A stretch of 36,622 nt of DNA from a virus (lineage: Duplodnaviria; Heunggongvirae; Uroviricota; Caudoviricetes): positions 1-36,622 of the IMG/VR virus record IMGVR_UViG_2531839531_000013. One strand, 5' to 3'. Shown here piece after piece: positions 24,532 through 25,251 of this stretch (its first letter is position 1; the number at the start of each line of letters is the position of its first letter). The notes under the pieces were generated by a model. The model was not told the DNA's origin and ran no database searches. It saw only the letters and a program-made list of their open reading frames with translations. The position numbers and the translations under genes are program-made.

Positions 24532-25251
24532 TTAGCCAAAGCAGAAACCAATATTGCAATTTGAAACTCCACAGTTGTGAAATTGATGTGGACCTACTCT
24601 TAGCTTGTGTTCGTCTCCTACAATCCGAGTCCCCTTAACCAACATATCTAATCTTTCCACAATCAATCTTTCAGGCGCATCAACTTTAATAATTAAACGA
24701 GGACCTTTCCTTTTTTCTATAATAGTTATTCTAGGACCGACAACCTGAACATCCCAATGCCTTGCACTACAAACCCACTCATTCTTAATTAATTCAAGAT
24801 TAACAATACCTTGACTATCGTAAAATTTACCCGAAATAAGAAAAGCATTATTTTCTTTTTCAATGGTTAACAATGGCTCATTTTGAAACATTATTGGTAC
24901 AGTACAGGATTCAAACGTCGCACCACCAAATATTATTGTTGGATGCCTATCAGAAAAGTCCAATATATCGGCCACATTCCCTTTTTGTAAGGCTGCAGGA
25001 GATTCCATTGCTTTAATTATTTTCTCTTTAGAGTAAAGACGTTTCGTTACTTTCGCATGGCACGTAGGACAAAGTAGTGCTATTGCATTTGGAGAGTGCT
25101 CCTTTGCATCAGCGTATGTGGGAATTACATGCTCATACTCAACAATGGGAGAAGCACAAACAACGCAACCGAAGCCACAGCGCTGCCTTACCTCCAGTTT
25201 TACAGGTTCAGGAATTGTTCTAGATAACCCATGCTTGTTAATAGTTGTCAT
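24532..25251 (-). CDS. Cargo protein with N-terminal HNH nuclease motif and unknown C-terminal domain
   Basis: CGFGCVVC ... YEHVIP ... NAIALLCPTCH is an HNH-type metal-binding pattern; AT-rich; occupies the P2 old/tin position next to cos. Confidence 0.6.
   Translation of the reverse strand: MTTINKHGLSRTIPEPVKLEVRQRCGFGCVVCASPIVEYEHVIPTYADAKEHSPNAIALLCPTCHAKVTKRLYSKEKIIKAMESPAALQKGNVADILDFSDRHPTIIFGGATFESCTVPIMFQNEPLLTIEKENNAFLISGKFYDSQGIVNLELIKNEWVCSARHWDVQVVGPRITIIEKRKGPRLIIKVDAPERLIVERLDMLVKGTRIVGDEHKLRVGPHQFHNCGVSNCNIGFCFG

Follow-up and report, generated by a model that had tools for sequence, protein, structure and literature searches.

What is the role of a solitary nuclease gene next to the cos site of a temperate phage, at the position where phage P2 carries old and tin? 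The question is raised by a 36,622-nucleotide stretch of viral DNA (IMG/VR record IMGVR_UViG_2531839531_000013, positions 1 to 36,622; hereafter the window), which is a P2/186-like prophage of Escherichia coli. Its last right-arm gene, hereafter the HNH gene, encodes a 239-residue protein with an N-terminal HNH nuclease module. Judged from sequence and context, a defence role is the best-supported reading of this gene, which we favour because of the hotspot position, the swappable low-GC cassette in which the gene resides and the recognizable defence genes found across cos. In its general form, a contribution to defence or exclusion deduced from genomic context and domain logic, this reading stands at an even chance or slightly better. 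Its more specific form falls a little short of an even chance: the HNH gene would be an autonomous, horizontally exchanged cargo ("moron") gene, whose product acts as a stand-alone HNH DNA nuclease that protects the lysogen against phages.

The HNH protein and its two domains

The original prediction, made from the DNA letters and a list of open reading frames (ORFs), had described an AT-rich gene at positions 24532-25251 encoding a 239-residue protein with an N-terminal HNH motif. The ORF list and the base composition of the gene (38.3% GC, compared with 55% for the phage core) bear out the former, and the latter is confirmed by Pfam HNH (PF01844), which matches residues 29-71 just above its gathering cut-off (24.8 bits against 21.4; E=2.4e-5). 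In addition, several PHROG "HNH endonuclease" families match the protein with E-values from 6.5e-6 to 6e-4, and phrog_6544, "unknown function", matches it over the full length (E=2.5e-111). The protein is identical to RefSeq WP_000207842.1, and its N-terminus is in register with the N-termini of the aligned homologues. At the corresponding locus of NZ_CM125675 the gene carries the RefSeq label "HNH endonuclease"; the only existing names for the family are this one, "hypothetical" or PHROG 6544 "unknown function". Our literature search found no paper that names WP_000207842 in its main text.

Residue conservation was read from an alignment of 39 homologous sequences. The HNH module possesses a Cys4 zinc site (C29, C32, C61 and C64), the catalytic H41 (codon at 25129-25131), H52 and the metal ligand H65. 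Among these residues, C29, C32, H41, H52 and C61 are invariant in the alignment, C64 and the neighboring E40 are at least 90% conserved, and position 65 is occupied by His, or by Asn in one clade. The module presents the ββα-metal fold of the HNH/His-Me finger superfamily, together with the Cys4 site, catalytic His and metal ligand that mark its members. Overall, it is a Cys4 zinc-finger HNH with the general base and the metal ligand intact, for which nuclease activity is predicted. The module is basic, with an isoelectric point (pI) of 9.1, compared to a near-neutral pI of 6.6 for the β domain that follows.

The genuinely new element is this β domain. The C-terminal part had been described as an unrecognized domain of 170 residues; it is indeed unrecognized, and its length is about 150 residues, from about residue 86/92 to residue 239. 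The structure of the domain is predicted with high confidence, yet it shows no resemblance to any solved structure. Two conserved motifs, N157-E158-W159 and W166-D167, sit on one conserved hairpin, and it is a matter of speculation that this Trp/Asp hairpin is a candidate pocket. The C-terminal domain diverges faster than the HNH part: the mean pairwise identity is 57% for the HNH part and 40% for the β domain, falling to 27% towards the C-terminus, the conserved hairpin apart. A domain search on the C-terminal half, as suggested with the original prediction, matched neither a known reader nor a homing module; the protein and 20 C-terminal domains of the family are both free of Pfam matches to NUMOD, IENR1, AP2 and HTH modules.

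A profile built from the β domain alone retrieved 1899 cluster representatives (50% identity) at E<=0.001. Among the best 150 of these 1899 matches, the HNH module is present wherever the N-terminus is long enough, and the 42 apparently "HNH-less" matches are either short fragments or have their start at Met83, an internal Met that is conserved. A β domain swapped onto other effectors was also considered, and was not seen among the same best 150 matches. Some family members possess C-terminal additions in the form of TPR, SEC-C or CxxCxxCC modules.

An exchangeable cassette beside cos and its relatives

The cos site was identified from its counterpart in P2 (AF063097): at 24349->24331 of the minus strand the window reads GGCGTGGCGGGGATACGAG, compared with GGCGAGGCGGGGAAAGCAC for P2 cosL (left end). 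The homology around cos reaches both P2 ends, and the cos core pattern has a single match in the window, with 0.02 expected by chance. In the P2 orientation, the order of elements is gpA (25960-28374), a 62-residue ORF, a DinI-like gene, the HNH gene, a hairpin, cos, a DUF4145 gene and the portal gene Q (22476-23513). The HNH gene is the last gene of the right arm, with its stop codon 183 bp from cos, and P2 has tin and old between gpA/orf91 and cosR; the comparison with P2 confirms that the gene lies, as had been predicted, at the old/tin position. Beyond that prediction, a second cargo gene, encoding the DUF4145 protein, is present across cos. Over 2.6 kb around the HNH gene, the window is 100% identical to E. 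coli 2020N21-246 (NZ_CM125675), in which RefSeq annotates a P2-type order of tail, baseplate, lysis, capsid, terminase P, portal Q and early region (gpA, CII, CI and integrase).

The HNH gene resides in a sharply delimited cassette. Blastn comparison with two HNH-less relatives (L002 and L003) placed the breakpoints at 24472 and 25302/25303, and P2-like prophages that are otherwise 96-99% identical carry unrelated cargo at this position. Among 5426 complete E. coli genomes, 21 possess the cassette, at an identity of at least 99.4%, always on the chromosome and in a single copy. The related portal, cos, DinI and gpA flanks, again 96-99% identical, are found in about 1260 of the 5426 genomes, and the HNH gene is missing from P2 itself and from ~98% of the related E. 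coli P2-like prophages. The identical HNH protein in these E. coli genomes is located in the DinI-to-cos slot, and the slot across cos varies, containing DUF4145, AIPR, TIR or a three-gene module with a dsDNA-nuclease domain. A Citrobacter orthologue (86% identical) faces a RES-domain protein across cos, and a Hafnia orthologue (53% identical) an AAA_15/AAA_21 ATPase pair. The left-arm slot, which holds DUF4145 in the window, is exchanged independently of the HNH slot. A two-gene system of HNH and DUF4145 was rejected, as the exact arrangement of the window is shared by only three E. coli genomes and the HNH gene has other partners elsewhere.

Anti-phage systems have a hotspot in the gpA-gpQ cos-proximal region of P2-like phages (Rousset et al. 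2022, PMC9122126), and Table S5 of that study contains WP_000207842 16 times, as "hypothetical" and with varying partners (PMC9122126). The cassette has the features of such hotspot cargo: it lies between gpA and portal Q beside cos, it is variable, and its GC content is 37.6%, compared to 55%. Hotspot location alone is no proof of defence, since about one third of the systems cloned by Rousset et al. were active (PMC9122126). According to a 2026 follow-up, unannotated genes at P2-like hotspot loci are often defensive once tested (PMC13586616).

The left junction of the cassette (25302-25313, minus strand) has a motif of its own. In three prophages the backbone ends in GCGAGGCGTTAG right before the differing cargo, and GCGAGGCG coincides with bases 2-9 of the cohesive end of P2. 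This motif may have arisen by chance, or it may be related to recombination or to the terminase.

Homologues of the HNH protein are widespread. We found 269 full-length homologues of about 240-260 residues, and the family extends to about 1,900 clusters at 50% identity in many bacterial phyla and some archaea. A single peptide pattern detected 253 family loci in a collection of species-representative genomes, distributed over Proteobacteria, Bacteroidota, Cyanobacteria, Chloroflexota, Planctomycetota, Fusobacterium and Saccharibacteria, with archaeal members in two methanogen or ANME bins; the same pattern occurs on 116 IMG/VR viral contigs. Only two of 50,697 phage genome records contain a relative, namely a full-length one in a Klebsiella phage and a partial match in a Vibrio phage. 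The former phage is named after its Klebsiella host strain and is probably temperate.

For the neighbor analysis, the family genes of 157 loci were clustered at 70% identity, which gave 84 lineages, and every ORF up to 3 kb away was compared. No conserved partner gene emerged: no neighbor family occurs in more than six of the 84 lineages, and the shared ones belong to the phage backbone. The search for a hidden partner or antitoxin across these lineages was equally negative; a 119-residue ORF downstream of the gene in Acinetobacter accompanies one single sequence variant only. The median gap between the family gene and the upstream ORF on the same strand is 174 nt, which, together with the absence of a shared neighbor family, indicates that the gene is a self-sufficient unit.

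The family occupies several distinct sites in mobile elements. The gpA/DinI-cos-Q slot holds a family gene in at least three lineages and is used in the P2-like prophages of E. coli, Citrobacter, Hafnia and Buttiauxella, at protein identities of 39-86%. Four lineages, and Erwinia in addition, have the gene in the gpV-lysis slot of other P2-like prophages, presumably the orf30 moron site of P2. It also sits in the lambdoid nin region (replication gene P to ninE/rusA/Q) of E. coli and Enterobacter prophages, and Klebsiella phage ST846-OXA48phi9.2 has it at a similar place in its early region, with the replication genes on one side and rusA/Q on the other. In a Pseudomonas prophage, the gene lies in the early region near the integrase and has Lar and SRA_ScoMcrA genes as neighbors; in Acinetobacter, it is carried by small Rep3/Mob plasmids alongside toxin-antitoxin and ATPase genes. 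The copies in the Erwinia and Pseudomonas prophages are oriented against the flanking phage operons.

In Rhizobacter sp. AJA081-3 (CP059067; positions 7000-14000 of locus L022), the family gene is a single-gene cassette of a chromosomal integron. The array has ten attC-like repeats of ~150 nt (GCCTAAC...GTTAGGC) in 7 kb, one between every gene. The other genes of this array encode GFA, DUF6386, ABM and GNAT acetyltransferase proteins, and a NADAR gene is located slightly farther along. Moreover, a 310-residue variant with a SEC-C module is 97-99% identical in Vibrio sinaloensis, Photobacterium salinisoli and Marinomonas piezotolerans, pointing to a very recent horizontal transfer across three genera; its only NCBI name is "SEC-C metal-binding domain-containing protein".

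Likeness to known systems and weighing of functions

Like P2 old/tin, the HNH gene lies between gpA and gpQ and is the cargo nearest to cos on the right arm; it also resembles them as a non-essential, low-GC gene of the lysogenic-conversion type. The 586-residue P2 Old (length from the P2 coordinates), which we take to be an ATPase-Toprim exonuclease, is a nuclease as well. However, neither sequence nor domain composition relates old or tin to the HNH protein, and phenotypes have been shown for old/tin. The orientation differs too, in that old and tin are transcribed towards gpA whereas the HNH gene is co-oriented with gpA.

Type IV HNH enzymes (EcoKMcrA, ScoMcrA, TagI and VcaM4I) are likewise encoded by solitary HNH genes lacking a cognate methyltransferase, but their domain order is reversed with respect to the window protein, in which the HNH comes first. 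The N-terminal reader of EcoKMcrA and the SRA, PUA and SBD domains have no similarity to the C-terminal domain of the window protein, and the only type IV match in PADLOC, to mREase_IV, is a borderline one (E=0.0095) that covers just the HNH part. Compared to the CBASS effector Cap5 (HNH-SAVED), the window protein has no SAVED domain, has no CD-NTase or other conserved neighbor, and is about 110-130 residues shorter (239 versus 351-368 residues).

A closer architectural parallel is offered by DS-7 ("SVIR", WP_225403053.1), a single-protein system of E. coli with experimentally validated anti-phage activity (DefensePredictor, PMC13092281), which also combines an N-terminal HNH (Cap5-like by HHpred) with a C-terminal β-rich domain new to defence. 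Nevertheless, the two proteins are not homologous (hhalign probability 0.14, E=0.41). DS-7 has 368 residues, the CxxC...CxxC zinc site is missing from its HNH, and its C-terminal domain adopts a baseplate gp25/DUF2634-like fold. Another protein, "HNH1" (WP_252151320, 301 residues), was tested in the DefensePredictor study and received no DS name (PMC13092281). Sirona and Nemetona are HNH-type single-gene systems from V. cholerae integron cassettes (bioRxiv 10.1101/2024.07.02.601686); a search seeded with a Vibrio family member returned no protein named V. cholerae in the best 120 matches, most of which are nameless.

We propose that the HNH nuclease would protect the lysogen, and thereby the prophage, from other phages. 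The N-terminal Cys4 zinc-finger module would be the DNA-cutting effector, whereas the faster-evolving β domain would supply the discrimination. We assign discrimination to the C-terminal domain because the gene has no partner, antitoxin or methyltransferase, and a DNase without a partner must be intrinsically selective or kept off. By analogy with type IV HNH enzymes such as McrA, the β domain might read a modified base or an unusual structure on incoming DNA, which the HNH module would then cleave. This restriction-like mode is preferred for the two-domain layout, the small size, the solitary distribution and an HNH core close to McrA-type enzymes; that the C-terminal domain recognizes a feature of incoming DNA is a tentative suggestion, less probable than not by a clear measure. 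It is possible, though on balance doubtful, that the β domain is a new recognition or sensor module and that the family represents a widespread, unnamed single-gene immune system, which tells phage from host without a partner.

The defence or superinfection-exclusion role that the original prediction called plausible agrees with the position and the cargo behavior of the gene, and finds no counterpart among the PADLOC models. Several observations weigh against the proposed defence role. PADLOC-DB v2.0.0 yielded no significant match; its best hits, the mREase_IV model mentioned above and an "Effector" endonuclease (E=0.035), cover the HNH part only, and NCBIfam has no match to the protein. Within the protein, N55, the middle "N" of the H-N-H motif, is not conserved across the family, and the near-neutral pI of the C-terminal domain does not suggest strong DNA binding. 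Comparison of this domain with the modified-base readers SRA, PUA/EVE/ASCH, NEco and SBD revealed no resemblance. WP_000207842 does not appear in Table S2 of Rousset et al. (PMC9122126), which gives the systems evaluated there, and we found no experimental work on the family in the literature. In non-viral genomes (62 lineages), most of the 115 immediate neighbors are ordinary metabolic or regulatory genes; roughly 10-15 of them match PADLOC families, such as AbiO, Nhi, AbiU, IetS and AriA, a weak signal that is at most suggestive as it comes with no control set. As to expression, the proposed promoter of the HNH gene rests on a by-eye reading, and the gene is co-oriented with the early genes and the SOS-controlled DinI-like genes. 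No clear terminator separates it from them, so that its expression might come with induction and not in the lysogen.

The same protein could also act in abortive infection, if the C-terminal domain held the HNH module off until it sensed a phage protein or a small molecule, upon which a non-specific, Cap5-like DNase would destroy host and phage DNA and the cell would die. A near-neutral, fast-evolving domain and the occasional TPR extensions fit such a mechanism equally well, and computation tells it and the restriction-like mode not apart. However, no signal-generating partner is conserved across the 84 lineages, the secondary structure and confidence values of the model give no evidence of autoinhibition, and 239 residues leave little room for sensing plus gating; we consider abortive infection rather unlikely. 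Alternatively, the gene might be a selfish, free-standing homing-type HNH: it would cleave relatives without the HNH gene close to the slot and enter them through recombinational repair, any exclusion of related phages being a by-product. This alternative, already raised in the original prediction, accords with a solitary nuclease gene lacking a partner, with the sharp cassette junctions inside conserved flanks, and with the scatter of single genes among unrelated housekeeping genes in many phyla. The near-identical copies in different strains and genera, and the use of one slot by E. coli, Citrobacter, Hafnia and Buttiauxella despite protein identities of 39-86%, are consistent with it as well. 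It sits poorly, however, with the lack of matches to NUMOD, IENR1, AP2 or HTH modules, with the two relatives among 50,697 phage records, where homing HNH genes abound, and with the alternative slot alleles, which carry other cargo instead of an empty target, as is general hotspot behavior (PMC9122126; PMC13586616). Moreover, the family has several unrelated sites, and the attC-flanked Rhizobacter cassette has a mode of movement for which nuclease-driven homing is not required. Taken together, homing is improbable.

Two further explanations place the HNH protein in the phage's own life cycle. It might benefit the phage during induction or lytic growth, through degradation of host or competitor DNA, processing of recombination or replication intermediates (as lambda NinG/Rap or P1 Ref) or counter-defence, and would then be transcribed with the early or SOS-induced genes. 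This is in line with its co-orientation with gpA downstream of a LexA-box-like site that precedes the 62-residue ORF and the DinI-like gene; only a U-less hairpin stands between these genes and the HNH gene. We regard this as quite unlikely, as the gene is dispensable, being absent from ~98% of related E. coli prophages and from P2, and as the family also occurs on plasmids, in an integron and at non-prophage chromosomal sites. The Erwinia and Pseudomonas copies face against the flanking operons, like independently expressed morons, and RusA is encoded alongside in the lambdoid loci, so a resolvase is not replaced. Terminase-associated HNH proteins, such as HK97 gp74 and GVE2 HNH, form a class of small single-domain proteins encoded next to terminase genes, and the HNH protein shares with them the fold and the proximity to cos. 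A packaging-associated HNH that aids terminase at cos, like HK97 gp74, had been listed as an alternative, and the distribution of the gene effectively refutes it: the cassette is found in 21 of 5426 genomes, compared to ~1260 that have the same cos/portal region with other cargo, and P2, in which packaging runs on gpP and gpM, has no such gene. In addition, the HNH gene is not conserved in its phage group and does not adjoin the terminase genes, its homologues lie far from cos and terminase (gpV/lysis slot, nin region, plasmids and integron), and its two-domain product of 239 residues is unlike that class. A packaging role is thus extremely improbable, and defence by a stand-alone nuclease stays the reading that we favour.

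Further features of the locus and of the prophage

The features around the HNH gene are collected in Table 1.

Table 1. Positions of the HNH gene, its domains and the neighboring elements in the window
Feature	Coordinates	Strand	Description and basis
HNH gene, coding sequence	24532..25251	(-)	239 residues; ATG start; stop codon included; ORF list
N-terminal nuclease module, residues 1-90	24982..25251	(-)	Basic helix, then ββα HNH core
C-terminal all-β domain, residues 92-239	24535..24978	(-)	About 17 strands; β-meander of ~150 residues; fold class without known match
Shine-Dalgarno-like AAGGTAAGG	25254..25262	(-)	Just 5' of the HNH ATG; read from the sequence
Candidate extended -10 TGATATAGT	25293..25301 (25301->25293)	(-)	Cassette-borne; 41 nt 5' of the ATG; read by eye
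Variable cassette, 829 bp	24473..25301		GC 37.6%; blastn breakpoints and junction inspection
Intrinsic-terminator-like hairpin GCCCGCCAGAGCUGGCGGGC then UUUUGCUUAU	24389..24418	(-)	Between HNH stop and cos; terminator scan and RNA fold
cos cohesive-end sequence, 19 nt	24331..24349	(-)	Splits right-arm slot (HNH) from left-arm slot (DUF4145); P2 cosL/cosR comparison
DUF4145 cargo gene, 232 residues	23522..24220	(-)	Between cos and portal Q; Pfam DUF4145 E=4.5e-7
Hairpin after the DinI-like stop codon	25329-25371	(-)	No U tract; kept in HNH-less relatives
DinI-like gene (resembles 186 Tum)	25374..25607	(-)	Backbone, left border of the slot; Pfam DinI E=1.3e-22; RefSeq
62-residue ORF	25618-25806	(-)	Precedes the DinI-like gene
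LexA-box-like site CACTGTTTATATTTACAGTA	25848-25867		One mismatch to TACTGT-N8-ACAGTA; no other in the window

A sigma-70 two-hexamer scan upstream of the HNH gene found no promoter. In the region of the candidate extended -10 element, TGATAT is invariant upstream of the gene in E. coli, Citrobacter and Hafnia, and TGnTAnnnT occurs upstream of the family gene in 14 of 83 lineages, compared to 7.8 +/- 2.6 in shuffles, a modest enrichment. The LexA-box-like site, the 62-residue ORF and the DinI-like gene resemble the SOS-inducible tum module of phage 186, and read-through from this site could reach the HNH gene. The hairpin that follows the DinI-like gene has a strength of about -30 kcal/mol over an 87-nt stretch (z=-2.8) and may be a terminator, a stabilizer or a recombination boundary. 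On the other side of the HNH gene, the terminator-like hairpin has its stem at 24418-24399, followed by a U run; it is part of the conserved backbone and present in HNH-less relatives. The DUF4145 protein, which belongs to phrog_1305, bears a weak likeness to the single-gene system PD-T7-4 (PADLOC E=1.2e-6).

The prophage has other cargo distant from cos. A retron-type reverse transcriptase of 257 residues is encoded at 511-1284 (minus strand), in an AT-rich stretch of about 500-2000 beyond gpD at the other prophage end, and matches Pfam RVT_1 (E=1.8e-21) and, as its best PADLOC model, RT_VI (E=7.8e-18). An anti-phage dCTP deaminase gene at 33202-34938 (minus strand; PADLOC dCTPase E=2.9e-145; GC 30-34%) is wedged between a P2-like integrase gene at 31807-32823 (plus strand) and a second tyrosine integrase gene at 35381-36622 (plus strand). 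In NZ_CM125675, this second integrase starts a P4-like satellite with HEPN and DUF262 genes; with the dCTP deaminase gene between the two integrases, helper prophage, satellite and defence gene stand side by side. Just upstream of gpA, a gene at 28371-29288 (minus strand) encodes a Dam-like orphan DNA adenine methyltransferase (PADLOC oMTase E=2.3e-111), a backbone gene that could modify the phage's own DNA. A restriction-modification pair of this methylase and the HNH nuclease was rejected, as the methylase is present in HNH-less relatives and the HNH gene stands alone elsewhere. Finally, the invertase/tail-fibre region of the window, at about 8900-10700, is ~1.5 kb shorter than its counterpart in NZ_CM125675 (positions 4080-6350 of locus L001), which contains a copy of IS1203; the window thus derives from a closely related prophage without the IS1203 insertion, and not from the NZ_CM125675 record itself.

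The hotspots of P2-like prophages have proved to yield new anti-phage systems, with many genes there still awaiting annotation. Specialists expect further defence genes in the gpA-gpQ slot, and the HNH gene is a compact and very widespread occupant of it. If it is not a defence gene, the case would show that a hotspot position and a nuclease domain are not enough for a defence call. If the β domain reads modified DNA, it might serve as a compact tool or reagent. If the HNH gene is a defence gene, it would add a very compact system together with a new recognition domain.

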